Below are positions 1 through 22,842 of a stretch of DNA of 22,842 bases, piece after piece; the stretch's first letter is position 1; each line of letters starts with the position of its first letter. The notes beneath the pieces were generated by a model. It saw only the letters and a program-made list of their open reading frames with translations. It was not told the DNA's origin and did no database searches. Both the position numbers and the translations under genes were made by a program. The stretch comes from Spirulina sp. (lineage in GTDB: Bacteria; Cyanobacteriota; Cyanobacteriia; Phormidesmidales; Phormidesmidaceae), in NCBI GenBank assembly GCA_044070495.1, contig JBIPSI010000050.1, positions 1-22,842 of the forward strand, in the 5' to 3' direction.

Positions 1-11
1 ACTGTTCAGAT

Positions 12-218
12 ATGCCTAGCCTCATCACCGACACCCTAACCTTCGGCGGCAACTGCGAACCCGACGCCACGCCGCCCCCCGGCTGGCAAATCACCGCAGC
101 CGACCCGCCCCCCGGAATGGCTTCCCCTCAGTGGGATGCAGTCGCCCAGCAGTGGATCGAAGGCCCCCAGCCCCCGCCCTATGCCCCGCCCCTGTCCTTG
201 TCAGACCTAATCCCATGA
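12..218 (+). CDS. Small Pro-rich hypothetical protein, possibly virion-associated
   Basis: 68 aa ORF with PQWDAVAQQWIE motif. Its stop overlaps the next start (ATGA at 215-218). Confidence 0.5.
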   Translation: MPSLITDTLTFGGNCEPDATPPPGWQITAADPPPGMASPQWDAVAQQWIEGPQPPPYAPPLSLSDLIP

Positions 219-367
219 ATCGCCCCATCCGCCCCGCCATCGCTATCGCCGCCGCTGTCGCCCTTGGCCTACTCGTTCTAGCCGCTGGTTCGCGGGATGA
301 ATTTCCAAGGCGTCGTCAAGGAGGAGGTAGCCAGAGTGCCAACCCTATCGCTCTACTTTCCGCCTGA
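215..367 (+). CDS. Small membrane or secreted peptide (50 aa)
   Basis: ATG overlaps the previous TGA. Basic N-terminus plus hydrophobic run AIAIAAAVALGLLVLAAG. The 3' end overlaps the FHA gene. Confidence 0.4.
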   Translation: MNRPIRPAIAIAAAVALGLLVLAAGSRDEFPRRRQGGGSQSANPIALLSA

Positions 368-908
368 GTTCCCCGACCCGTCACTCGCGGATCACACCCA
401 TCGCCTGACCATCCCCCGACCAGACGCCGACTCTGATGAGTTCCTGGTCGGACGCTCCCCAGAGTTAGACCTAACCTTAGCCGTCAAGACCGTTAGCCGT
501 CGCCATCTGGCCATCACCTACAGCTACGCCGCCGACCGCTGGGCCATTCAGGATCTCAAATCCACCGGGGGCACTTGGCTGAACGACCAGGCCCTCACCC
601 CCTATAACTGGCACTCCCTCACCATCGGAGACAAGATCCACCTCAGCAGCAACCCGCCGATCCGAGTTGTTGAGGATGAGAACGACACCATCAACGACGA
701 CGGCCCCACCACCGTCGTAAGCCTCACGCCCCTGGCCACCATTCCCCCAGCTCCCCTCGACGGCGACCGCTACGACGACGCCCTCTACCTGTTTGTCCAG
801 TGGTTCACCACCGGCACCACCTTCTGGGGAAAAACAGCCCGGTTCCTGCTGCTGGTGCTGCTGGCCACCATCGCCGCCGTTGCGGTGGCCGCCGTCGTCA
901 TCCACTAG
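297..908 (+). CDS. FHA domain protein with C-terminal transmembrane helix
   Basis: FHA motifs VGRS, VSRRH and DLKSTGGTWLND; hydrophobic tail FLLLVLLATIAAVAVAAVV. An alternative GTG start at 336 follows a GGAGG RBS. Confidence 0.85.
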   Translation: MNFQGVVKEEVARVPTLSLYFPPEFPDPSLADHTHRLTIPRPDADSDEFLVGRSPELDLTLAVKTVSRRHLAITYSYAADRWAIQDLKSTGGTWLNDQALTPYNWHSLTIGDKIHLSSNPPIRVVEDENDTINDDGPTTVVSLTPLATIPPAPLDGDRYDDALYLFVQWFTTGTTFWGKTARFLLLVLLATIAAVAVAAVVIH

Positions 909-916
909 CCCAAAAC

Positions 917-948
917 AAAACCCCCAGGGCCTTGGCCGCTGAGGGTTC
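917..948. terminator. Probable hairpin terminator between convergent genes
   Basis: Imperfect stem aacccc-ag-ggcc / ggcc-g-ctga-gggtt preceded by an A-run. Confidence 0.45.
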
Positions 949-960
949 GCTGAGTAGTAG

Positions 961-1965
961 TCACAGCCTAATTTTAGGTCGTGGCGTCAGCCGTCGCCAT
1001 CCATCAATCACCGCCAAAATCTCAGCATGGGGCCGAAAATCCACATACACCGCCCGTTCTACAATCGCCGCCCGTTCCCTCACCAGCCCCCGCAGCATAG
1101 AGCCACCTGGAATGTGGCGGACGCCATCAATGCGATCACCATGGCCCCACCGATACCGGAAGTAACGCCTTCCCTTGCTGGGATATTCGCTGGCCTCATG
1201 CCAAAACCGCCCACCCTGGCAAAACGCCTCATGAAGCGCGTCGTCCTCATCCCCTGGATCGGCATCCTCCCACCAACGAGATTCCGCACTGTCGGACACA
1301 TTTCCCTTAGGAAAATCTTGGCCCTGAATCTCGCCCCCGCAATCGCTGAAGCGGCGAGATTCCGCACTGTCGGACACGCTTCCTAGTGGCTCCACCTCTC
1401 CGCCATCCCAAAACCATAGACCTTGGTTCCCCCGACAGTAGATCGGCTTAATGGGCTGAACGTCTGACAGCACCCACCCCCAGGGGCCAAAGAACCATGG
1501 CGAGTTATGCGTCTGAGTGTTGCCCCGAAAAGTGACCAGCGCGACGATAGCCCCTGCTGGGTGTTCGCTTTCCGGCGGCACATCTCCCAGGCCGCTTGTC
1601 CTGATCCACTCCGCCCCCTCCGAGTCCCACCCCTTCCCGGCATGGATCGCAATCACTGTCCCGACCTCTCTCGGTAGCGCCCAGGTTCTGTTCTCGACAT
1701 CCTTCCCCAGGTGGGTGATCGCGTAGGCCCAGGGCCGCTTTAGGGTAACGGTGGGCGTTCGTTCAACATGTGACAGTTGCCCTCTGCTCGCGTGGCTACA
1801 GCTCGGAGCTGTGCGCGGCTGATCGTCGCCCGAAACCCTTGCTATTGCGTTGTTGTCGGAAAGCCCCCCTCGGCTAACGACGTTGTGACAGTTGCCCCCG
1901 CACTCTAGGCGGCAATAGTAGCCGCTGGGGTGGTCTAGGCTGGGCACCAAGTTAGGGCACATCAT
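961..1965 (-). CDS. ASCH (PUA-like) domain protein with an additional C-terminal basic domain
   Basis: ASCH signature TLKRPWAYAI..GKDVENRTW..IAIHAGK..GAIVALV..RGNQGLW; C-terminal RYFRYRW..HIPGG segment. Confidence 0.85.
   Translation of the reverse strand: MMCPNLVPSLDHPSGYYCRLECGGNCHNVVSRGGLSDNNAIARVSGDDQPRTAPSCSHASRGQLSHVERTPTVTLKRPWAYAITHLGKDVENRTWALPREVGTVIAIHAGKGWDSEGAEWIRTSGLGDVPPESEHPAGAIVALVTFRGNTQTHNSPWFFGPWGWVLSDVQPIKPIYCRGNQGLWFWDGGEVEPLGSVSDSAESRRFSDCGGEIQGQDFPKGNVSDSAESRWWEDADPGDEDDALHEAFCQGGRFWHEASEYPSKGRRYFRYRWGHGDRIDGVRHIPGGSMLRGLVRERAAIVERAVYVDFRPHAEILAVIDGWRRLTPRPKIRL
1277..1377. repeat. 23-bp exact direct repeat inside the ASCH gene
   Basis: cgagattccgcactgtcggacac at 1277-1299 and 1355-1377 (VSDSAESR twice). 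Confidence 0.9.
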
Positions 1966-2200
1966 CGGTCAAGCCTTCCACAATCAAGGACAGAAAGTAG
2001 TTTCGGGCTGGTGCTGGCCACCGCCGCACCATGCTGAGCACCTGATGCGCATTGAGTCGCACCGCTAGCGCCTGTTGGTCGGCCTTACTCAGGCCGTGGG
2101 CCTCCAGTTCCGCCAAGATGGCATCTACGAGATGGTCAACATCATCACCACCTCGGTGCTCTGGCTGTTCGATTAGGTCTAAAAGGTTAAGTTGCGTCAT
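1952..2200 (-). CDS. Hypothetical protein (82 aa)
   Basis: ORF overlaps the ASCH start, suggesting an operon; helical composition. Confidence 0.6.
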   Translation of the reverse strand: MTQLNLLDLIEQPEHRGGDDVDHLVDAILAELEAHGLSKADQQALAVRLNAHQVLSMVRRWPAPARNYFLSLIVEGLTDDVP

Positions 2201-2239
2201 GACTGGGCACTTTAAATTTGCTGAGTTTGGTTGCTAATC

Positions 2240-2638
2240 ATGCGTGTTCATCCGATCTGGTATTTGGTGGGGTTCTCCCTATTCATTGGGGTCGCCAATA
2301 AGGTTTTGGAGAGTCCCCAGGGCGCGGCCCCCGCCGCCGCTGGTGGCAGCTCTGGGGACTACGCCACCGAGGTGGCCAAGATGATCACCGAGGTAACCAA
2401 TATCGACGCCCAAGGGGAGATGGAAGCTCGCCACTACTACGAAGAAACCATCCTGGGCCTAGATGCTTACTGCTCCGAGAATGTGGGGATGGTTGTAAGG
2501 CTTGCCGCCGTCGAAGTGGATAGGAGGGGTGATTCAGGCGTTCAGTTCGCGCTACTAGATGAGCTTGACGTAGTCCTAACCATGGCTGAAGACGCCCCCG
2601 TGCGCCCCACCCCCTGCGAACCACTGATAGGCCAGTAG
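2240..2638 (+). CDS. Hypothetical N-terminally membrane-anchored acidic protein
   Basis: ATG at 2240, hydrophobic IWYLVGFSLFIGVA segment, followed by a strong hairpin. Confidence 0.6.
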   Translation: MRVHPIWYLVGFSLFIGVANKVLESPQGAAPAAAGGSSGDYATEVAKMITEVTNIDAQGEMEARHYYEETILGLDAYCSENVGMVVRLAAVEVDRRGDSGVQFALLDELDVVLTMAEDAPVRPTPCEPLIGQ

Positions 2639-2656
2639 CCCACCACCACGCCAAAG

Positions 2657-2692
2657 CAAACCCCCAGAGATGCGATCACCTCTGGGGGTTTG
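2657..2692. terminator. Bidirectional intrinsic terminator
   Basis: 13-bp stem caaacccccagag / ctctgggggtttg between convergent ORFs. Confidence 0.8.
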
Positions 2693-2701
2693 TTGTGTTG
2701 G

Positions 2702-3037
2702 TTATTCGCCGCCTAGTTGAGACCTCAGCTCCTCCAACTCCTTGAGTGAGGTTGTGTGCTTTTCAACTTCGCGTTCATACCAGCGCACGCACTCCTCGAC
2801 TTCTACCAGCTTCTCTTGCTCTTGCTTGATTAGCTGGTCAACGATTTTCCCAAGACGTCTGGCTGAGTCCTGGGAGACTCTGTCGATGATGGCTTGTACC
2901 AATCCTTCATAGTCTCCAAAAGCTCCGAGAGGGACTTCGCCCCCACCTCCTGCTTCACTTTCTCCATGAAGTCCCTGGCCTCGTTGCTCACGGTCAAGTT
3001 CAGTCGCGGTTTCTGTGCCATTCTCAACCTTCTCCAT
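2702..3037 (-). CDS. Coiled-coil hypothetical protein (111 aa)
   Basis: ATG at 3037; heptad-rich C-terminal half IVDQLIKQEQEKLVEVEECVRWYEREVEKHTTSLKELEELRSQL. Confidence 0.6.
   Translation of the reverse strand: MEKVENGTETATELDREQRGQGLHGESEAGGGGEVPLGAFGDYEGLVQAIIDRVSQDSARRLGKIVDQLIKQEQEKLVEVEECVRWYEREVEKHTTSLKELEELRSQLGGE
2830..3021 (-). CDS. Ribbon-helix-helix (CopG/Arc-like) DNA-binding protein, nested in a different frame of the coiled-coil gene
   Basis: MAQKPRLNLTVSNEARDFMEKVKQEVGAKSLSELLETM has the alternating beta-strand, helix and G-x-x-S-L-S-E-L-L helix pattern. Confidence 0.7.
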   Translation of the reverse strand: MAQKPRLNLTVSNEARDFMEKVKQEVGAKSLSELLETMKDWYKPSSTESPRTQPDVLGKSLTS

Positions 3038-3063
3038 AGATCGTCTCCATGATTGTACGCCGC

Positions 3064-3126
3064 TTATACGCATAACTTATTAATGCGCATAACTATGCGT
3101 ATTGTAGTTCAAGTTATGCGTATAAT
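3064..3126. promoter_or_regulatory. Divergent promoter/operator array
   Basis: Perfect 15-bp inverted repeat ttatacgcataactt (3064-3078) / aagttatgcgtataa (3111-3125), a central near-palindrome aatgcgcata-ac-tatgcgtatt, and TATAAT at 3121-3126. Confidence 0.8.
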
Positions 3127-3299
3127 GCACGCATGGATAACCAACTCCACAACGGGGCCTCACTCCCCCGTTTTCCTGGCTGGCCCTAGGGGTGTATGGG
3201 CGTTCATGCAGGCGGTGCAATTCCGCCCAGGCCAAAGTGACTGACTAGCGTCAAACGTAGTGACCGGGGAACGCCCCCCGGATTTTCTTAGGAGAAAAA

Positions 3300-3629
3300 G
3301 TGACCCAAGAAGAGTTGATGACCCTACGCCTACCCCGCCTACAGCAGATTGCCGAGCGCCACGGCATTCAATGGGCCAATGCCCACGGGAGAGGCCGCCA
3401 TCTACGCAAACCTGAGCTGGTAGAACTGCTGGCCCCCGTCTTAGAGGCTAAAACGCCCCCGCCCCTGCCCCAGAAAGTCTATCGAGTGGTGAACCGCGCC
3501 ACGGGAAAAGAGGTCGGGCGTTTTCCATCCATCTCCTACGCCGGTCTATTTTGGCGGGGCCTGTGCCAAGCCAACGGATCAGCAGAAGCCATCAAAATGA
3601 AATTTCGCATGGAGGAAACCTGGGAATGA
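3300..3629 (+). CDS. Hypothetical protein with Rho_N/HeH-like N-terminal motif
   Basis: AGGAG RBS before GTG; LRLPRLQQIAERHGI...LRKPELVELL pattern. Confidence 0.65.
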   Translation: MTQEELMTLRLPRLQQIAERHGIQWANAHGRGRHLRKPELVELLAPVLEAKTPPPLPQKVYRVVNRATGKEVGRFPSISYAGLFWRGLCQANGSAEAIKMKFRMEETWE

Positions 3630-3829
3630 CCGCCGAAGCCGCCCACTACTGCACCCCCAAAGACCGAGTGACGAGCGAAATCCTCAAGGAAATGCGCTCC
3701 ATGAGCTTGCCCGACCTGGTCTATCTTCGCGACCAAGCCCAGGCCCTCAACCAAGCGCGTCTAGAGCAAGAAGCCGCCCTCAACGCCCGTTACCCCCTCA
3801 CCACCGGAACCGATGACCATGGCGAGTAA
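3626..3829 (+). CDS. Hypothetical protein (67 aa)
   Basis: GGAGG RBS; ATGA overlap with the upstream stop. Confidence 0.6.
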   Translation: MTAEAAHYCTPKDRVTSEILKEMRSMSLPDLVYLRDQAQALNQARLEQEAALNARYPLTTGTDDHGE

Positions 3830-4082
3830 CCAACAAGTTCCCGAACGCATCGCCCGCACCCTCGCCAAAGCTGCCTTTGTATCGGCTTACCTGGCTGACG
3901 AAGCAACCAGCGGCAGTACCGAGCATGTAGGGCAGAACCCAGAGGAGCTTATGGCCTCCTTGAATCACGTTGCCGAATGCCGCCTACTAGAGATGCCCCG
4001 TAGCGAGTATCTAGCCAACCTGCGCCGCTGGCTCTCGGCCTTCGATTGTGAACTCTTAGAGGAAACCCCCGATGCCGAATGA
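3813..4082 (+). CDS. Hypothetical protein
   Basis: ORF overlaps both neighbours in the same operon. Confidence 0.6.
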   Translation: MTMASNQQVPERIARTLAKAAFVSAYLADEATSGSTEHVGQNPEELMASLNHVAECRLLEMPRSEYLANLRRWLSAFDCELLEETPDAE

Positions 4083-4404
4083 AACCCCCACCATCCAACC
4101 CTGGGCCATGGACGCCCTACGAGAGCTGATTGATATCGCAGGGCTGCTCAACGATGAACAGTTCATTTCCCACGAAGAAGACCCCCGAATCACCGTCATC
4201 GACCGCCTAACCCAGCTCATCCAGTCCTTAGTGATTGACCGTGAACCCCTAGACCCCCAGGACGATGATCAGCGAGTCTTCTTTATGCCAGAGGACGGAG
4301 TCCCTGTCGAGGTTCGCTCCAGTGAGAACCCCTACGAGAGTGAACGAAACCTAGACCGGATTGACGACGACGAGTACGGCAACCCCCGCCTGCTCCCTTA
4401 CTAA
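4072..4404 (+). CDS. Acidic hypothetical protein (110 aa)
   Basis: GAGG RBS; overlaps the upstream ORF; its stop abuts the ribozyme. Confidence 0.65.
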   Translation: MPNETPTIQPWAMDALRELIDIAGLLNDEQFISHEEDPRITVIDRLTQLIQSLVIDREPLDPQDDDQRVFFMPEDGVPVEVRSSENPYESERNLDRIDDDEYGNPRLLPY

Positions 4405-4466
4405 CCCGCCTGACGATGGCCCCTGCCAAGGGCCGAAACATTCCCCACCGTGGGGAGTGTCGCGGG
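4405..4466 (+). ncRNA. Type I hammerhead ribozyme
   Basis: Stem I cccgc (4405-4409) / gcggg (4462-4466). Core CUGACGA (4410-4416) plus one extra U. Stem II ggccc / gggcc. GAAA at 4435-4438. Stem III acauucccca / uggggagugu. GUC cleavage triplet at 4459-4461. Confidence 0.92.
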
Positions 4467-4650
4467 AGGCTTGCACGGCCCCGGATTCCAACCCCGTGGC
4501 CCTAAGCTTCTTCGCCTCCGGGCTGGGGCTGTTATACCGATGCGTTTTTACGCCCAAAGAATGTTGCCATACAGCCCGGAGCCACCACTAGGCGGAATCA
4601 TCTCCAGTCTGAGAGCGACGTGCTAAACGGTGGCCCAGCCCCGGAGCTTA
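4462..4650 (+). ncRNA. Putative IS110 bridge RNA
   Basis: Non-coding segment just upstream of an IS110 recombinase. It has a 5' hairpin (4474-4498), an outer stem (4516-4525 / 4636-4646) and two arms (4526-4577, 4581-4634), each with a large internal loop capped by a small hairpin. Confidence 0.75.
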
Positions 4651-4677
4651 TGTAATTGCGACACAGGACGTTGATCT

Positions 4678-5880
4678 ATGCCTTCAATCATCGGGGTAGA
4701 GGTTGCTAAGACCTCTGTGCTTTGCTGCAATCTGGATGACGGTCTACCCGTTCCTAGCGACCCAGCGCAGTTTGCCCATTCCTATGAACCCATCCCCATC
4801 CTGGCCAACAGCGACGGTGTGAAACGCCTGTTGGAGCTGGGAGATCACTATGTCATTGAACCTACGGGGGATTATTCCCGCGTTTGGATCAACACCCTCA
4901 GGGCCAACGGTAAGACCGTCCTTAGGGTCAATCCCAAACGGGTATCTGCCCTGAAGCAGTATCACGGCGTAGCCAGTAAGACCGACCGATACGACGCCGC
5001 ATTCCTGGCCATCTATGGAGCCATGAACCACGGCAAGCCCAGCGCATTCCTTAGCGACTACGCCGAGGAACTGAGGGAAGCCACAGCCCAACATCAATTC
5101 CTTAGCCGCCAGACGGGGAACCTTCAGCGCCGCCTATGGCAACTCCTAAGCCACGAATGGCCGGAAGCCTGCCGCGTGGCATCAGGGAAGAAACCCCAGC
5201 AGCGCCGCCTATGGCTTAGTCCCCATCCTCCGGCGCTGTGGCGGTTTGTCGCTGGTGAGTCGGTCAGGAACCAGAAAAGCAGGGAAGCCAGTCTAGACGA
5301 AACCATTGGCTCCGGCCTCTCCGTGATGAGTAAGACCCTGGCCGCGCAGGTCTGCGAGATGGAGCGGCAACAGTTCCTTATTGAAGAGCACATCGCCGCA
5401 ATCCTCGAAGTCAGCGAGTTTAAGCCCTATCACACCGTATTTGATCGGTTCGGCTTCGGCGAGATGACGCGGGCCGTCCTGCTGAGCCGCATCTACCCCT
5501 TTGATCGCTTCCTAGGCCCAGACGGTAAGCCCCGCAGGGAGAAGCGCCCTAGTTCCAAGACAGAAGGGCGCTTCCATCGCCGTGATCGCTCCCTGGGAGC
5601 CTTCCGTATGGCCCTGGGCAATGGAACCCGCGTCTATCAGTCAGGGCAAGACATGAAGCGTCGCGCCGCTGGTAGTCAGCTAACCCGAACGGCGCTGTAT
5701 CTCCATGTGGGGACAAAGATTTGCATGGCCAGCGCCAGAAACCTCGCCATGCCCCCCAAACTTCGCGCCCATGCTGACTACCATCAATCCCTCGCAGGGG
5801 TGCCCCACAAGCAGGCCGTCAGTAAAACCATGAGCCGAATCGTCAAAGACCTATACAGGGAGTTGCTGGCCACCCTGTAA
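4678..5880 (+). CDS. IS110-family (Piv/MooV-like) recombinase/transposase
   Basis: RuvC-like motifs IIGVEVAK, VIEPTG, VNP and KTDRYDA; C-terminal Tnp domain LG..YQSG (Ser322)..GS..RTALY. Confidence 0.9.
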   Translation: MPSIIGVEVAKTSVLCCNLDDGLPVPSDPAQFAHSYEPIPILANSDGVKRLLELGDHYVIEPTGDYSRVWINTLRANGKTVLRVNPKRVSALKQYHGVASKTDRYDAAFLAIYGAMNHGKPSAFLSDYAEELREATAQHQFLSRQTGNLQRRLWQLLSHEWPEACRVASGKKPQQRRLWLSPHPPALWRFVAGESVRNQKSREASLDETIGSGLSVMSKTLAAQVCEMERQQFLIEEHIAAILEVSEFKPYHTVFDRFGFGEMTRAVLLSRIYPFDRFLGPDGKPRREKRPSSKTEGRFHRRDRSLGAFRMALGNGTRVYQSGQDMKRRAAGSQLTRTALYLHVGTKICMASARNLAMPPKLRAHADYHQSLAGVPHKQAVSKTMSRIVKDLYRELLATL

Positions 5881-5902
5881 AGCCTCCTGAGATGACCCCG
5901 CG

Positions 5903-5929
5903 CCCCCGCTCTGTCGGGGGTCTTTTTTT
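5903..5929 (+). terminator. Intrinsic terminator after the recombinase
   Basis: cccccg / cggggg stem followed by tcttttttt. Confidence 0.8.
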
Positions 5930-5936
5930 GGCCGCG

Positions 5937-6027
5937 CTTATACCGATCCCTTCGTTCGTGCTGCACTCTGATCGCTAGTGTGGGTAGCGAAATCTTCGTG
6001 CAGCACTCACTACGGAATCGGTATAAG
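5937..6027. repeat. 91-bp imperfect palindrome with CTTATACCGAT termini
   Basis: cttataccgat (5937-5947) / atcggtataag (6017-6027); gtgctgcac / gtgcagcac; cgcta / tagcg. Confidence 0.9.
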
Positions 6028-6056
6028 GTAGGTTAAGGCGCTTTAGGAGTCTACCG

Positions 6057-6833
6057 ATGTCAGATGTCGCGCTATCGCCAAGTCCTCGTTCGGCAAGCCC
6101 CGCCCTCGATTTGGAGGCGGTGAATCGGCAGTGGGCCGATGCCGATGCGAGCCGCCTGGTGCAGTGGGGCTACGACACCTTTGGCGAGGGGCTAGTCCTC
6201 AGTACCAGTTTTGGCATTCAGTCGGCGGTGATGCTGCATTTGGTGACCCAGGTGGTGCCCCAAATTCCCGTCATTTGGGTGGATACAGGCTATCTGCCGG
6301 TGGAGACCTACCGCTTTGCCGAAGAACTCACTGAACGCCTACACCTGAACCTGAAGGTGTATCAATCCTCCCTTAGCCCCGCCCGCATGGAAGCGATCTA
6401 CGGTCGGCTGTGGGAGCACAACGATGTGGAATCCTTCAATCGCTACGACTACATCCGCAAGGTGGAACCCATGCAGCGGGCCTTGACGGAACTGGGGGCG
6501 ACCGCATGGCTAGCGGGCCTCCGGGCCGACCAAACCGAGCACCGCCGCACCCTAGAACGCATTGGGCTTCAGGGCGGACGCTACAAGCTAATGCCCATCC
6601 TCAAGTGGACCTCTAAGCAGGTCTATCAATACCTCGTAGCCCACGATTTGCCCTACCATCCCCTCTTCGACAAGGGCTACGTCACCGTGGGCGACTGGCA
6701 CTCTAGCCGTCCCATCAGCGCCAATGACAAAAACGAGCGCGACACCCGCTTCAAAGGGCTAAAGCAGGAATGCGGTCTGCACCTGCCCCAATCCCCCGAA
6801 GCCGCCGCTAGCCTGGATTCTAGTTCGTTGTAG
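6057..6833 (+). CDS. cysH: Phosphoadenylyl-sulfate (PAPS) reductase
   Basis: [29 protein letters not shown] and C-terminal ECGLH motifs. Confidence 0.95.
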
Positions 6834-12021: not shown

Positions 12022-12174
12022 ACTAGTGCGGTTCTCGATAGCGTGAGATACCCCATGGCTGGGGTCTAGATCCCCCCAGTCCCTAGCGGTCGAAGGTTCA
12101 CTTTGTACCCCCCTTATCAAGGGGGCAGGGGGGATCATCGCCATGGACTTCAGCCCAGTAAAATCCGCTATAGT
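12022..12174. repeat. Nested repeat: a (ATA)GCGGTT..CCGCTAT-type element containing a REP-like palindrome
   Basis: Ends actagtgcggtt / atccgctatagt; inner ccatgg pair; gatccccc..cccccttatcaagggggcaggggggatc at 12069-12136. Confidence 0.6.
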
Positions 12175-12206
12175 GCGAAGAAATAAGACATCGGTCATTG
12201 GGCTAA

Positions 12207-12337
12207 GAGGGCGTTTGAAAAGGGTTGCCCCAGGTGCGATTGGTCGCTAGATCGGTGCAAATCTACGGGATTTTTGACGACGGAGGCTGACCTCATCGGT
12301 ATAACTTGGGACGAGCTTCAGCTTTTCAAACGTCCTC
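12207..12337. mobile_element. MITE with IS5/IS1031-like ends
   Basis: TIR gagggcgtttgaaaag / cttttcaaacgtcctc (15/16), flanked by TAA on both sides (12204-12206, 12338-12340); no ORF. Confidence 0.75.
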
Positions 12338-12594
12338 TAAAGTCCTGTCATTTACCCAAACTCTATGGTTGACGGCTGTCCTAAAAAAGTAAAAAAATGA
12401 CGGGGCCAGAGATGGGGATGATTTGTGGTGCGCTCATCCGAATCCTATTGAGGGGTTAAGACCTAGGGAAGCTATCGAAACCTTCTATCGCTCGGCTACA
12501 AGTAGACAGAAAGGCCATACGGATGGGGACGAATCTGCACACATCGCAGCGTAATCCGGTATGGATTGCGCTGCCCTAGCCCAGCCGATATCTG

Positions 12595-15764: not shown

Positions 15765-15874
15765 AGCATTGTTGTGAAAACGATGCTAATTTGTCCCGGC
15801 GACACTAATTCACCCTCGACGACACCAATCTGCCACAGATGACAGACAACGTGTCACTGTATGCCTGAAAACAG

Positions 15875-15948
15875 GGCGGATGAGGAGACTCGAACTCCCG
15901 AATGGTGGAACCACAATCCACTGCCTTAACCACTTGGCTACACCCGCC
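15875..15948 (-). tRNA. trnH: tRNA-His(GUG)
   Basis: GGCGGGTGTAGCCAAGTGGTTAAGGCAGTGGATTGTGGTTCCACCATTCGGGAGTTCGAGTCTCCTCATCCGCC; G-1 with C73 discriminator; CCA not encoded. Confidence 0.97.
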
Positions 15949-19250: not shown

Positions 19251-20753
19251 ATGCTTCGTGAGTTTGATACCGATCTCCCAGACCAGGCCACCTCGGCGGC
19301 CAATGATCGCCCTGGCCTTGGCGAAACCGCCAACCCAGACCATCTCCTCCATTCAGACTCGACGCCGCCGTCGTCTACTCCAGCATCCACGCTTAATCTG
19401 GCCGCTCCATCTGACCCCGCCATCCCCCACCCCGCCCCCGATCCAAATCCGTCATCGGTGGATGAACCCCATGGCCCTGGGTTTGGGCGGGTGCTGAAAA
19501 ACCGAAATTTCCTCACCCTCTGGCTGGGCCAACTGTTTTCCCAACTGGCGGACAAGGTCTATCTGGTGCTAATGATTGCCATTATCTCCGCCCAGTTTGA
19601 TACCCCAGGCCAAAGCATTAGCGGCTGGGTATCGGCGGTGATGGTGGCCTTTACCATTCCGGCGGTGCTGTTTGGGGCGGCGGCGGGGGTGTTTGTGGAT
19701 CGCTGGCGTAAGCAGCCCGTGTTGGTGCTGTCGAACCTGCTGCGGGGGGGCTTGGTGTTGCTGCTGCCCCTGGGGTTGTGGCTGGCGGCGGATGGGGGAT
19801 TCCTGGCGGGTTGGCCCCTGGCCTTTTGGTTCCTGTTAACGGTCACCTTTGTGATATCCACCCTCACCCAGTTTTTTGCCCCGGCAGAGCAGGCGATTAT
19901 TCCTGTGATTGTGGCGGAGGGGGATTTGTTACCGGCCAACTCTCTCTACACCACCACCATGACCGCCTCAGTGATTGTGGGGTTTGCGGTGGGGGAACCG
20001 CTGCTGGCCCTCGCCGACCAACTGATGACCACCCTAGGCGTTACCAACAACGGCCCAGCGGTGCTGGTGGGGATGAGCTATCTGCTGGCGGGGCTGTGTT
20101 TGGCGTCCATCCGGCCCGGTGCTGAGACCCTGTCGGCGGGGCGCGACTGGTCGCAGTTTTGGCTCGATATCCGCGATGGGTTGAGTTATCTGAAGCACCA
20201 GGCCCAAGTGCGGGTGGCAATTTTGCAGTTGGTGCTGCTGTCCTGTGTGTTTGCGTCCCTGGCGGTGCTGGCGGTGCGCTTGGCGGAACTGATTCCGGCG
20301 ATTAAGGCCTCCCAGTTTGGGTTTTTGCTGGCCGCTGGTGGGGCGGGGCTGGCCCTGGGGGCGATTCTGGTGGGGCACTATGGTCAGCGGTTTCCTCGCC
20401 GCTACCTCAGTCTGTGGGGCACCCTGGGCATGGCCCTCAGCCTAGTTCTGCTAGCTTGGACCACCCAACAACTGTGGCTTTCCATCGGGCTGCTGACGGT
20501 GCTGGGCTTTGCTGGGGCGCTGGTGGGCATCCCCATGCAAACGCTAATTCAAGAAACCACCCCAGAGGATATGCGGGGCAAGGTGTTTGGGCTGCAAAAT
20601 AACCTGGTTAACATCGCCCTCACCCTGCCCCTGGCCCTCACCAGCCTGGTGGAAACGGCCCTGGGTTTGCCCTCCGTTTTTGTGGGTCTGGGGGCGGTGG
20701 TTGGTCTCGGTGGGGTGGCAACGTTATTCTATTACCGTTCATCTGAAGCCTAG
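19251..20753 (+). CDS. MFS transporter
   Basis: NRNFLTLWLGQLFSQLAD, GVFVDRW, FFAPAE and DMRGKVFG motifs; about 12 TM helices. Confidence 0.92.
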   Translation: MLREFDTDLPDQATSAANDRPGLGETANPDHLLHSDSTPPSSTPASTLNLAAPSDPAIPHPAPDPNPSSVDEPHGPGFGRVLKNRNFLTLWLGQLFSQLADKVYLVLMIAIISAQFDTPGQSISGWVSAVMVAFTIPAVLFGAAAGVFVDRWRKQPVLVLSNLLRGGLVLLLPLGLWLAADGGFLAGWPLAFWFLLTVTFVISTLTQFFAPAEQAIIPVIVAEGDLLPANSLYTTTMTASVIVGFAVGEPLLALADQLMTTLGVTNNGPAVLVGMSYLLAGLCLASIRPGAETLSAGRDWSQFWLDIRDGLSYLKHQAQVRVAILQLVLLSCVFASLAVLAVRLAELIPAIKASQFGFLLAAGGAGLALGAILVGHYGQRFPRRYLSLWGTLGMALSLVLLAWTTQQLWLSIGLLTVLGFAGALVGIPMQTLIQETTPEDMRGKVFGLQNNLVNIALTLPLALTSLVETALGLPSVFVGLGAVVGLGGVATLFYYRSSEA

Positions 20754-20763
20754 TACAAAAGCC

Positions 20764-21324
20764 CTAGAGCAGTTCCGCCGTCCGCCGCTTTTCTGCTTCG
20801 CTGGACTCCAGATAGGGTTGTAGGCTGGCCAGGGAGGCATGACCGCTCAGTTCCTGGATCCGCTTTGTCGAGATGCCTTTCTTCAGGAGATGGGTTAGGG
20901 CTCCCCTTCGAGTGCTGTAGGGGCTGTAGCCCGTCATCCCCAGTTGTGCAAAAGCCCTAGACAGGGCGTTGTAGTAGGCCCGATAGCTAAGATGGCCGCT
21001 TTGACTGTCGCTAGGGAACAACGGCCCCCAGGCTGGAGCGTCGTAGAGGCGCAGTTCAGCGGCTAGGCCAGTGGTCACCGGCGCCTCTCTTGTCCGCCGA
21101 TCCTTCCGTTTGGCCCTGGCGATCACAATGGTTTCCCGTGGCCGTCGTTTGTCGTTGGAGGTATAGCAGTCCTCAACGTCGAGTTGGAGGATCGCCCCTG
21201 GCCGCTCCGTGGTGTACCAGCACAGAGCGAAGGCCATGCGATAAGCCCCCCTCAAATTGTTAAGCACTGTGTTGAACTGAGTTTTTGTTAGCGGTTCGGC
21301 TTGTCCATTGCCGTGAATTTTCAT
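20764..21324 (-). CDS. Minimal tyrosine recombinase/integrase (catalytic domain only)
   Basis: TTERP (R), RKD (K), YSTRR (HxxR variant), SGH and LQPY (catalytic Tyr); 186 aa. Confidence 0.9.
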   Translation of the reverse strand: MKIHGNGQAEPLTKTQFNTVLNNLRGAYRMAFALCWYTTERPGAILQLDVEDCYTSNDKRRPRETIVIARAKRKDRRTREAPVTTGLAAELRLYDAPAWGPLFPSDSQSGHLSYRAYYNALSRAFAQLGMTGYSPYSTRRGALTHLLKKGISTKRIQELSGHASLASLQPYLESSEAEKRRTAELL

Positions 21325-21509
21325 TCCTGTTTCCCTCGAAAAACATTAAGAACAGGAACCGCAGCAACTTGAATATAATTCTCCAACGCCCAAAAGCCGC
21401 GCCGGTAGGCTGTTCTAGCTATTAATTCTAATGCTCGATTTGTAGATTTCCTGATCTTCTCTATCAAGATTTAATGCCGTAAAACTGGCATAGAGTTCCT
21501 GATTTTCCT

Positions 21510-21809
21510 ATGTCTGCATTTTCGACCACAGACCTCCCCGCCTCAATTGACAGTTTAGAGAAGCTGGTTGTCTGGGCCTGCGGGGCCTTCTACCAACTGC
21601 ATAAAAACGACCGTTACCAGGAAAGCGACGCTAGTCCGCTAATCCCTCTGGTCACCGCCCAAGATGGGTTGGCGGCTGACAAGACGGAGAGAATTATCTT
21701 CCGTCTGTCGATCCAACTGCTGGATACGTGGCGAGAAGATACGCTGCCCATGTTCGCCCAGGCCCTGGAGGCCAGTAACGCTGCCATCCCGTCTGGCTAT
21801 ACGCCCTAG
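21510..21809 (+). CDS. Hypothetical protein (99 aa), possible structural protein
   Basis: Clean ORF divergent from the integrase, 9 nt upstream of the next ORF. Confidence 0.7.
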   Translation: MSAFSTTDLPASIDSLEKLVVWACGAFYQLHKNDRYQESDASPLIPLVTAQDGLAADKTERIIFRLSIQLLDTWREDTLPMFAQALEASNAAIPSGYTP

Positions 21810-21818
21810 GGGTGAGTG

Positions 21819-22842
21819 ATGTCTGTTGCCCTCAAGTCGGCTAGCCCAACGGAGCTAGGCCAATCGATCAATAGCGGAGCCATTACCCGCCCTCCCACGG
21901 TGGGGAATATCGATCAGATCGCCATTCCCCAAACGGCGCAAACCTCCAACATCAGCCCTACGACCTACGTTAGGGAGTTCAACGTCCCAGGGCAAAACGT
22001 AACCGCCGAGGTTCCCTATCGGATGCCTGCCGATGTAGGGGATCCGCTTTATCGCCCACTAGCAGGCGACCCCCTAGGGCAGCCCTCCACTCGCAGCGGT
22101 CGCCCTGTTCGCAGTGCTGGCCTAGACGGAGGGCCGATCAACGCAGGCAGCGCACCCCCCAGGACGGCCCCCACTGGAGCTGCGCCCATAAATCGCAATG
22201 GCGGCGGCGGTGCATCTGCTGGAGGACGAACCAGCAACCCAGGTCGAGCGGTCAATCCTAGGGTTCCCGGAGGAATTGGCGGCGCTGCGTCTGTTGGTGT
22301 GGCGGTTGTCTTTGGCGGCGGCGGACTAGGAGAGCGAGTTGGGACGGGAATCGGCGGATACATCGGCTTCAATCAGGGCGCGGCGGCTGGGGCGGCGGCT
22401 GGGGCTTCCGCTGGGACGGTTACCCTTCCTGGCGTGGGCACGGTCGGCCTCGGCGGCGCTGGGGCTGTTGCTGGCGGGATTGCAGGCGCAGGCGTGGGCG
22501 GAGCTGTCGGGGGACGCATTGGCCGCGCCATAGACAACGCTATCCCAGATTTCCCCCTCCCCTGGCCATTCAACGGCGGCGGCGGCTACCCCAACCAAAC
22601 CGACCCCGACGCCATTCCCCCAGGGCCTGAAACGGAGTCTGGAAGCTCAAATAGTGGCTCAGTGTCGGGCGTAGTCTATCGGGCCGTCGGTGGGCACACC
22701 GATCAATTTGGCAGCTATGTGAACACCGTTTCCGCTCCATTGACTGGGCCTGTTTCGAGTGGTTCAAACGAGACATATCACGGGAATGGGAGACAGGCCG
22801 GAAAATTCCAGGTCTACACGGACTCAAACGGATTTACTGTTT
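21819..22842 (+). CDS. Gly/Pro-rich glycine-zipper protein, truncated by the window end (at least 341 aa)
   Basis: Manual translation from ATG 21819 is open to the end: MSVALKSASPTELGQ...GAAAGAAAGASAGTVTLPGVGTVGLGGAGAVAGGIAGAGVGGAVGGRIG...; not in the ORF track. Confidence 0.8.
   Translation, partial: MSVALKSASPTELGQSINSGAITRPPTVGNIDQIAIPQTAQTSNISPTTYVREFNVPGQNVTAEVPYRMPADVGDPLYRPLAGDPLGQPSTRSGRPVRSAGLDGGPINAGSAPPRTAPTGAAPINRNGGGGASAGGRTSNPGRAVNPRVPGGIGGAASVGVAVVFGGGGLGERVGTGIGGYIGFNQGAAAGAAAGASAGTVTLPGVGTVGLGGAGAVAGGIAGAGVGGAVGGRIGRAIDNAIPDFPLPWPFNGGGGYPNQTDPDAIPPGPETESGSSNSGSVSGVVYRAVGGHTDQFGSYVNTVSAPLTGPVSSGSNETYHGNGRQAGKFQVYTDSNGFTV

Follow-up and report, generated by a model that had tools for sequence, protein, structure and literature searches.

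An IS110-family recombinase and a bridge-like leader RNA at the right end of a family of cyanobacterial integrative elements

Layout of the locus

The window analysed here is the whole of contig C50 (JBIPSI010000050.1; 22,842 nucleotides) of a cyanobacterial assembly of 5.3 Mb in 74 contigs, and its two ends lie in two sibling copies of one kind of mobile element, termed A and B, each of which carries at its right end an IS110-family recombinase gene preceded by a structured leader RNA. The right 6.0 kb of element A, in its integrated form, occupies positions 1-6015 on the forward strand, and its left 2.15 kb is found on contig C47. Element B is represented in the window by its core triplet AAC (20720-20722) and left 2.1 kb (20720-22842, forward strand), while its right end is on contig C56. 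Reverse-complemented, C56 runs colinear with the window from base 1, with 88-98% identity in the cargo and 66% identity in the recombinase gene. Since C50 and C56 start with an identical 127-mer, the assembly evidently broke inside the repeat; the middle of both elements is on no contig of this genome.

Element A closes with a compact block of co-oriented genes. A repeat or operator array at 3064-3125 lies between a divergent open reading frame (ORF; 2702-3073, reverse strand) and an operon that begins at 3300; its inverted arms, TTATACGCATAACTT and AAGTTATGCGTATAA, are 15 nt long and 100% complementary, and additional copies occur there. The operon opens with four small cargo ORFs on the forward strand (3300-3629, 3626-3829, 3813-4082 and 4072-4404), whose ends overlap or abut and which have no family match; their homologues stand in identical order in the relative L006. 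One base past the TAA stop codon at 4402-4404 begins a hammerhead-type motif of type I (4405-4466, forward strand), followed by the candidate bridge RNA (4462-4677, forward strand), the gene for the 400-residue recombinase (4678-5880, forward strand) and an intrinsic terminator-like element (5902-5929, forward strand) consisting of a hairpin at 5902-5921 and a T run, a layout equalled in the relatives. The right end of A proper (5938-6015, forward strand) comprises an inner arm, TTATACCGAT, at 5938-5947 and then a conserved imperfect palindrome; the core AAT at 6016-6018 is the crossover point, and host DNA begins at 6019, with the recombinase gene ending 135 bases short of it. In most of these points the first-pass annotation of this DNA is borne out: the recombinase gene is the last of a co-oriented block, with four ORFs (3300-4404) ahead of it, behind the array; it is followed by a terminator of its own; and the ribozyme-like motif abuts the previous stop codon. 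The host boundary that had been placed at 5947 is real, but it lies at 6016-6018, the homology of relatives to the window starting at about 6010-6016, and positions 5938-5947 are the inner repeat, a part of element A.

The product of 4678-5880 matches Pfam family PF01548 (DEDD_Tnp_IS110) with an E value of 5.5e-14 and NCBIfam NF051857 (transpos_IS110_2) with 288.8 bits against a cut-off of 180. The PF01548 domain is found in 35 of 35 relatives, and a profile of these sequences matches IS621 (8wt6) at E 3.1e-10 over residues 5-152. Residues E61, D103, D106, S305 and S322-G323 are invariant in the family, and position 7 is always E or D. An AlphaFold2 model with a predicted local distance difference test score (pLDDT) of 91.7 returned IS621 and ISCro4 as its ten best Foldseek matches, over the full length, with template modelling (TM) scores by target of 0.55-0.57 and a probability of 1.0. 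The catalytic serine may be S305 or S322, both of which are invariant. A single paralogue, whose protein is 57% identical, is present on C56, giving two copies in total. Both of them sit at the right end of a sibling element and there is no stand-alone 1.5-kb copy in this genome.

Element ends, empty sites and the leader RNA

In G008 and G022, the two closest relatives of this genome, no element is present upstream of cysH; the upstream flank of their empty sites maps to C47 and the downstream flank to the cysH flank of the window. The left junction of A on C47 reads ...ctggctgaag AAT gttgctctag... and its right junction in the window reads ...cactacgg AAT cggtataagg..., and the site rebuilt from these two is equal in length to the empty sites of G008 and G022. 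For B, homology to the relatives ends at 20722, the left junction, and the empty site, ggcAAC/ctggtatattgcc (the slash marks the junction), is present in all five relatives displayed; here it is split into ...ggcAAC/gttattc in the window and ...cttcagAAC/ctggtatattgcc on C56. The left end of B is 92% identical to that of A on C47. Each element thus has its core triplet, AAT for A and AAC for B, at its two junctions, and each empty site has one copy, so that insertion is conservative at a three-base core and is not accompanied by a longer target duplication. Because the exact junctions and the empty sites are in hand for both A and B, the inserted unit is the whole element, bounded by the three-base core.

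The inner arm at 5938-5947 and host bases 6017-6026 form an inverted repeat of about 90 bases around the imperfect palindrome. Its arms could be recognised by eye in 11 of 14 loci, the inner arm corresponding to the guide word described below with 0-2 mismatches. The idea that this palindrome is a dispersed host repeat used as a target was discarded: it is unique in the genome and is missing from the empty sites.

The leader is 216 bases long and folds as a two-loop RNA. The RNAalifold consensus of five sequences contains 53 base pairs, 19 of them with compensatory changes, arranged as a 5' stem-loop, a target-binding loop and a donor-binding loop. In the first internal loop, which is closed by a small hairpin, strands 4532-4541 and 4556-4567 face each other, and in the second, strands 4609-4621 and 4648-4662 do so. 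Matches of these strands to DNA were counted at a fixed register; comparison by longest common word was dropped, since its background is 7-9 bases. The 5' strand of the target loop (4532-4541, forward strand), TTATACCGAT, is the reverse complement of the core and right target at 6017-6026. The corresponding guide matches its own core and right flank at 10/10 positions in 10 of 11 loci and at 9/10 in the remaining one (mean 9.9), while its mean against non-cognate loci is 4.4/10, with cross values of 9 only between similar sites. The 3' strand of the same loop (4556-4567, forward strand), AAAGAATGTTGC, is the sense of the left target, the core and the first bases of the left tip; the seven bases before GTT agree with the left junction at 6-7 of 7 positions in all five elements whose left junction is known (mean 6.6/7 for cognate and 2.9 for non-cognate pairs).

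The donor loop refers to the ends of the element itself. Its conserved 5' strand (4609-4621, forward strand), CTGAGAGCGACGT, is complementary to the core and left tip, with 10-11 contiguous pairs, including 1-3 G-T pairs, in six of six elements, and each of the tip variants GTTGCTCT, GTTATTCT and GTTGTTCT is met by a variant of the RNA. In relatives that are assembled whole, this left tip is 10 kb or more from the RNA gene. The 3' strand (4648-4662, forward strand), TTATGTAATTGCG, holds the element's own three-base core, AAT here, and the core triplet is the correct one in 6/6 elements. Three of the four guide strands therefore match strongly, and the fourth at the core only. The word ACTAGGCGGAATC (4587-4599) was also considered as a guide, because it resembles the right end of A, and was rejected since it fails in other loci. 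With guides that match both flanks and the far left tip, the leader appears to work like a bridge RNA acting on the ends of the whole element, and it is on these ends that the recombinase would act.

Four sequences (B, L009, G115 and G162a) have a second RNA architecture, in which the target loop offers two alternative 3' strands. One of them spells the left target and core, as in the empty site; the other spells the right end and core, as in the occupied junction, and it matches at 7-8 of 8 positions, as judged by eye, in three of the four. This suggests a switch between recognition of empty and occupied sites. In addition, the AGGA that precedes the start codon of the recombinase gene (within 4648-4677) is part of the stem predicted at the base of the donor loop, its alignment columns 227-229 pairing with columns 152-154 of the consensus fold, so that RNA folding and translation of the recombinase may compete.

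Stem I of the hammerhead-type motif is formed by 4405-4409 and 4462-4466, and between its strands come, in order, a CUGAcGA core, stem II, GAAA, stem III and GUC, after which GCGGG follows. Cleavage is predicted after C4461, which would make 4462 the first base of the bridge RNA. This layout recurs in 17 of 17 loci, of which a script parsed 16 and the last was read by eye, and which include distant members of the clade; stems II and III vary in sequence and are always paired, position H is C, A or U, and stem I is open. At the homologous position of locus L008 the Rfam hammerhead model RF00163 reaches 33.8 bits (E 6.6e-7), the gathering score being 34. The GCGGG that forms stem I on its 3' side opens, in the consensus fold, the 5' stem of the bridge RNA, an overlap that would favour release after the predicted cut. 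Two minor observations concern this region in other loci. Positions 9709-9781 of L008, covering the hammerhead and the stretch just upstream, give a weak match to RAGATH-1-hammerhead (RF03152; 26.5 bits, gathering score 56.3). The distant homologues L042 and L044 (in genomes G137 and G125) have no hammerhead in the 320 bases upstream of the gene and have there words like TTATACGCATAA, as in the operator-like array at 3064-3125 of the window.

Proposed mechanism and competing explanations

Among public runs, none of RNA contains the locus. A contig of 2390 bases in the public metagenome run X1, with a depth of 41, appears to join the two ends of such an element. It follows the window over 4415-6018, at 33 differences, parts from it precisely behind the core, and then matches 20917-20942 and 21185-21225, inside the tyrosine recombinase gene at the left end of B, after which 254 letters follow. 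The 784 letters past the core leave 463 for the two gaps, which equals 221 + 242 by arithmetic from the match coordinates. The backbone shared by the two siblings begins after 72 bases in an A-type tip, compared with 45 in B, so the figure of 463 would place an A-type left tip directly after the core, to the base. The host flank has a depth of 0-3 in the same run. The contig would be explained by a relative, about 98% identical, that is present as a circle or in head-to-tail copies.

Taken together, the junctions and guide matches make it very probable that the IS110-family recombinase and its bridge RNA are the integration and excision machine of an integrative element of 12-15 kb found in filamentous cyanobacteria. 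In the mechanism proposed, the operon transcript would run on into the leader, and the type I hammerhead would cut after C4461, freeing the 5' end of the bridge RNA, which could then re-pair into that RNA's own 5' stem. The complex of recombinase and RNA would pair the circular form, across right end, core and left tip, with the chromosomal site, and strand exchange would take place at the core, as for IS621. The guides for the top strand are on the 5' side here, when compared with the positions in IS621, and the coding module would therefore be inverted relative to the polarity of the site. The GTTGC extension past the left-target guide could serve as a long handshake guide for the donor, and the tyrosine recombinase would supply a second, conserved function. 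A more ambitious version, in which a natural RNA-guided integrase of large cargo has its bridge RNA cut by the hammerhead from a polycistronic transcript and one RNA switches between integration and excision, with the inner inverted target word in the right end as a docking half-site for the excision complex, is conceivable but on the whole doubtful.

Several results weigh against this interpretation or parts of it. A simple scan of 2600-6200 found no sigma-70-like promoter. The C-terminal transposase domain PF02371 is detected in 6 of 35 members at E <= 1, with a best value of 0.013, the family being too divergent for it. In G115, a single locus, the core is mismatched at the right junction. 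The cross matrix of the donor guide separates the tip variants just partly, owing to G-U pairing, and the flanks of the donor loop's 3' strand match the right-end junction weakly (4-6 of 7-8 positions by eye). The joined ends in X1 are a contig-level result, known by match coordinates, and a head-to-tail tandem would look identical. The window copy of the hammerhead (searched at 4380-4700) gives no Rfam hammerhead match at E <= 10, and it shares with B and the relative G1 an extra U between A9 and stem II; for these two reasons it may cut poorly or not at all. Finally, the tyrosine recombinase is under strong purifying selection and present in every element, so that it may contribute to integration or excision.

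This second recombinase is encoded in B at 20764-21324 on the reverse strand (186 residues; PF00589, E 2e-13; phrog_216, 2.6e-27). The Pfam match spans profile positions 3-170 of 172, that is, the catalytic domain only, and the 186-213-residue enzymes of the family are without the N-terminal core-binding domain of phage integrases. The catalytic residues R (ERxG), K, xxR, GH and Y are kept in seven of eight copies; the first catalytic H is replaced by Y in A, B and G1. The gene lies some 45-70 bases from the left junction, on the strand opposite to the IS110 gene and, in six relatives, 4.5-16 kb from it. The combination of tyrosine recombinase on the left and IS110 gene on the right is found in 8/8 elements (A, B, G1, G2, G115, G162a, G050 and G078), two more loci being too short to judge. 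Between A and B the tyrosine recombinase genes differ at 56 of 558 bases and the proteins at 4 of 186 residues, with a ratio of nonsynonymous to synonymous substitution rates (dN/dS) of 0.03. The leaders diverge after 4478, the first 45-72 bases of the left tips differ, and A and B occupy unrelated sites, each of which fits its own RNA. That nearly identical tyrosine recombinases go with unrelated sites indicates that this enzyme is not the site chooser, and the comparison argues strongly that site choice follows the module of RNA and IS110 gene rather than the rest of the element. In the circle, leader, gene, right end and left tip would be contiguous over about 1.7 kb, and hence exchangeable as one block. 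The annotation would have been contradicted by related elements that lack the IS110 gene at this position and carry another integrase, and this is half the case: every element has the tyrosine recombinase too, but this does not track the choice of site. Resolution of multimers of the circle, or help with excision, may be guessed as its task.

It is nevertheless worth asking whether the tyrosine recombinase is the real integrase and the IS110 gene with its RNA a passenger or a module with some other purpose. A PF00589/phrog_216 'integrase' so close to the left junction occupies a frequent place of prophage integrases, and its presence in all eight elements, its catalytic residues, retained in most copies, and its low dN/dS count in favour of this role. 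This explanation is very unlikely, given that the almost invariant enzyme goes with unrelated sites and has the catalytic domain alone, with no N-terminal DNA-binding domain, and that the junctions have just 3-5 bases in common; tyrosine integrases usually have a far longer overlap region than that. Nor would it account for a leader RNA in which both flanks and the left tip are spelled out. Still less credence can be given to the suggestion that a separate IS110 insertion sequence of 1.6 kb (4405-6018) landed between an unrelated element and the host, and that the cargo is not moved by it. This segment has the size of an IS110 element, and at about 4405-4478 there is a change in homology both with the X1 variant and with sibling B, as expected of an exchangeable module. 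However, the left-target and donor guides match the far left junction and not 4405, the recombinase is at the same position in eight elements with different targets, no solo copy is present in this genome, and the empty sites of relatives lack the whole element, not merely 1.6 kb.

A different objection is that the elements are fixed relics, whose guide matches record a past insertion with no present movement. This genome shows nothing that directly indicates movement, this clade's hammerhead departs from the canonical form, and decay is evident at some loci, the recombinase being truncated in G162 and the tyrosine recombinase degenerate in G078. Against this stand the empty sites of the close relatives G008 and G022, one orthologous site at which G115 and L009 differ in guide and site alike, the intact state of both recombinase genes, the tyrosine one under selection, and the contrast in X1 between the depth of the joined-ends contig and that of the host flank. 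The relic explanation is accordingly rather unlikely.

Distribution, cargo and relation to known systems

The recombinase family numbers 37 proteins in a large protein collection, in clusters of 1-3 member sequences each, and all the named ones are from Nodosilinea- or Leptolyngbya-type cyanobacteria. A scan of genome contigs with the single protein found no relative; an alignment-based scan did, and 18 of 151 genomes of the host family match at E <= 1e-40, with 1-3 copies each. The carriers span at least five genera of this one cyanobacterial family; those in culture include the strains of L006 (Phormidium sp. FACHB-1136), L008 (Nodosilinea sp. LEGE 06152) and L009 (LEGE 07088). In the neighbourhood analysis of homologues that the first-pass annotation had called for, gene order is kept in the eight elements with enough sequence; the element is complete in G1, with 11.9 kb, and in G2, with about 14.7 kb, and the backbone is 5-18 kb overall.

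The cargo was searched for virus hallmarks in 12 ORFs of the window's right part and in 18 and 13 ORFs of two complete relatives, and among these no match to a capsid, portal, terminase or morphogenesis ATPase was obtained from Pfam, PHROG or NCBIfam; the 18 ORFs of G1 contain no Walker A motif. What was matched is phrog_3193 (function unknown), an FHA domain and a tail tape-measure PHROG, the last at E 0.0033 on a cut ORF (21816-22841), a weak match and the sole one of phage type. No relative was found in IMG/VR, where the protein profile gave a 25% match only and the hammerhead pattern none; the one match there to the donor-guide pattern, in coding sequence that is terminase-like and has no recombinase in its vicinity, was taken as chance. 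The description of the element as phage-like thus finds no backing in the cargo tested, and the notion that the recombinase had been domesticated is needless, as the layout can be read as an IS110 unit with cargo between left tip and bridge RNA, an expansion of a kind known from a 2026 preprint (bioRxiv 10.64898/2026.08.14.744561). The further proposal of an RNA-guided IS110 recombinase that moves a multi-kb cargo is well supported by guides that fit both target halves and the far left tip, by the precise empty sites of both elements and by the constant gene order. The largest cargo protein (window 1-218 and 21816-22842; L055 9056-11620) has 855-925 residues in relatives; it is rich in proline and glycine, its C-terminal part is helical, a single segment resembles a membrane span, and its ESM Atlas model has a pLDDT of 0.39. 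Structural leads from the Atlas for the 855-residue form (best 0.79; TspB 0.76) were set aside as weak and derived from a poor model.

The closest known systems are the bridge RNA-guided recombinases of IS621 and the IS110 family as described by Durrant et al. 2024 (PMC11208160) and Hiraizumi et al. 2024 (PMC11208158). Common to both are the DEDD RuvC-like domain and, by the predicted structure, the Tnp fold, an RNA upstream of the recombinase with internal loops for target and donor whose guides include a short core, conservative recombination at that core, and an extension beside a guide that matches the other DNA in handshake fashion. In each loop of the published RNA, one guide is the sense of the left half and core and the other the reverse complement of the core and right half (PMC11208160). 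The differences from IS621, as it is presented there, are considerable. In complete relatives, 10 kb or more of cargo separates left tip and RNA gene, and a promoter rebuilt by the joining of the ends could not serve this RNA, which has a hammerhead before it instead; this follows from the layout, with the RNA gene at the right end and at least 6 kb from A's left tip, the junction itself not having been scanned for promoters. The order of guides is, to judge from position numbers, swapped in both loops relative to gene order, the target guide has 10 bases, and the putative handshake covers 3-5 bases rather than 2. The protein has 400 residues against 326, with a Tnp domain beyond the reach of PF02371, and the right end contains an inverted target word.

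Large cargo is itself not without precedent, for IS110 loci far above 1.5 kb, up to about 100 kb and with multi-gene cargo, have been described by Hu et al. (bioRxiv 10.64898/2026.08.14.744561), together with guides that match the flanks of the whole locus, recovery of a 9.2-kb circle, and tandem or nested growth. Those loci mostly bear plasmid-derived or resistance cargo gained by progressive accretion, whereas the elements described here have a conserved backbone of 5-18 kb in fixed order, a hammerhead and a second recombinase; the main text of the preprint (10.64898/2026.08.14.744561) makes no mention of a ribozyme, of cyanobacteria or of prophages. Filamentous prophages of Neisseria (Nf1-4/MDA), of about 8 kb, end in an IS110-family gene that is taken as their integrase (PMC7058167, citing Kawai et al. 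2005). They resemble the present elements in this terminal gene and in the targeting of a short repeat with a small conserved core, but they are described as inoviruses with genes for replication, coat and assembly (PMC7058167), and no virus hallmark was found here in the ORFs tested.

Neither hammerheads nor tyrosine recombinases are known to have been reported for the IS110-bearing prophages of Neisseria. Type I hammerheads have been reported near prophage integrase genes (Perreault et al. 2011, PMC3088659). These are alike in core, in their three stems and in lying between genes of a mobile-element transcript with a recombinase gene adjoining; relative to the account in PMC3088659, what differs here is that the predicted cut falls at the first base of a guide RNA, into whose own 5' stem the 3' strand of stem I may re-pair. 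No literature link of a hammerhead to IS110 or to a bridge RNA was found in the papers searched, and those that name both hammerhead and IS110 do not, judged by title or passages, connect them. Cargo-bearing IS110 elements, IS110-bearing Neisseria prophages and integrase-adjacent hammerheads are thus already published; new here are the conserved cyanobacterial lineage, the hammerhead at the predicted RNA 5' end, the swapped order of the guides and their length, the target-mimicking right end and the paired tyrosine recombinase.

Bridge recombinases are under development as programmable tools for the insertion of large DNA. In natural elements with cargo, how the guide RNA is expressed and shaped, and what sets the direction in or out, are questions on which this lineage bears, with its predicted ribozyme-set 5' end, 10-base guide, long handshake-like extension, cargo of 5-18 kb, possible second RNA conformer for the occupied site and accessory tyrosine recombinase. 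Searches that demand the standard two-domain Pfam architecture miss the whole clade. For cyanobacterial genomics, it adds a new mobile element family, site-specific in its insertions and with exactly defined ends.

Some further features of the window and of one relative deserve brief mention. A tRNA-His gene (GTG; 15874-15947) lies between A and B and is the attachment site of neither; it was the only hit in an Rfam scan of the window at gathering level. A repeat of about 140 bases at 12201-12342, and also at 12028-12172, resembles a miniature inverted-repeat transposable element (MITE) with inverted ends (..TAGAGGRCGTTTGAAAAG..), and the genome has about 40 copies of it. Within this repeat stands ATCGGTATAA, exactly the 10 bases that the target guide of A reads; the word occurs 42 times in the genome, mostly in this MITE-like repeat, and since the left-target half is mismatched there, these would be half-match sites. 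Element B is inserted in the last codons of a major facilitator superfamily transporter gene (19251-20753), whose reading frame now stops 31 bases within B, so that the C-terminus of the transporter is replaced. In locus L058 (G162:C4:1665500-1685400), two left tips occur 330 bases apart at about 1290-2250, one element having inserted into an older member of the family, now decayed, within its tyrosine recombinase gene, and a truncated IS110 gene for 339 residues without a leader lies 3 kb further on; this arrangement points to nested or tandem growth of these elements.

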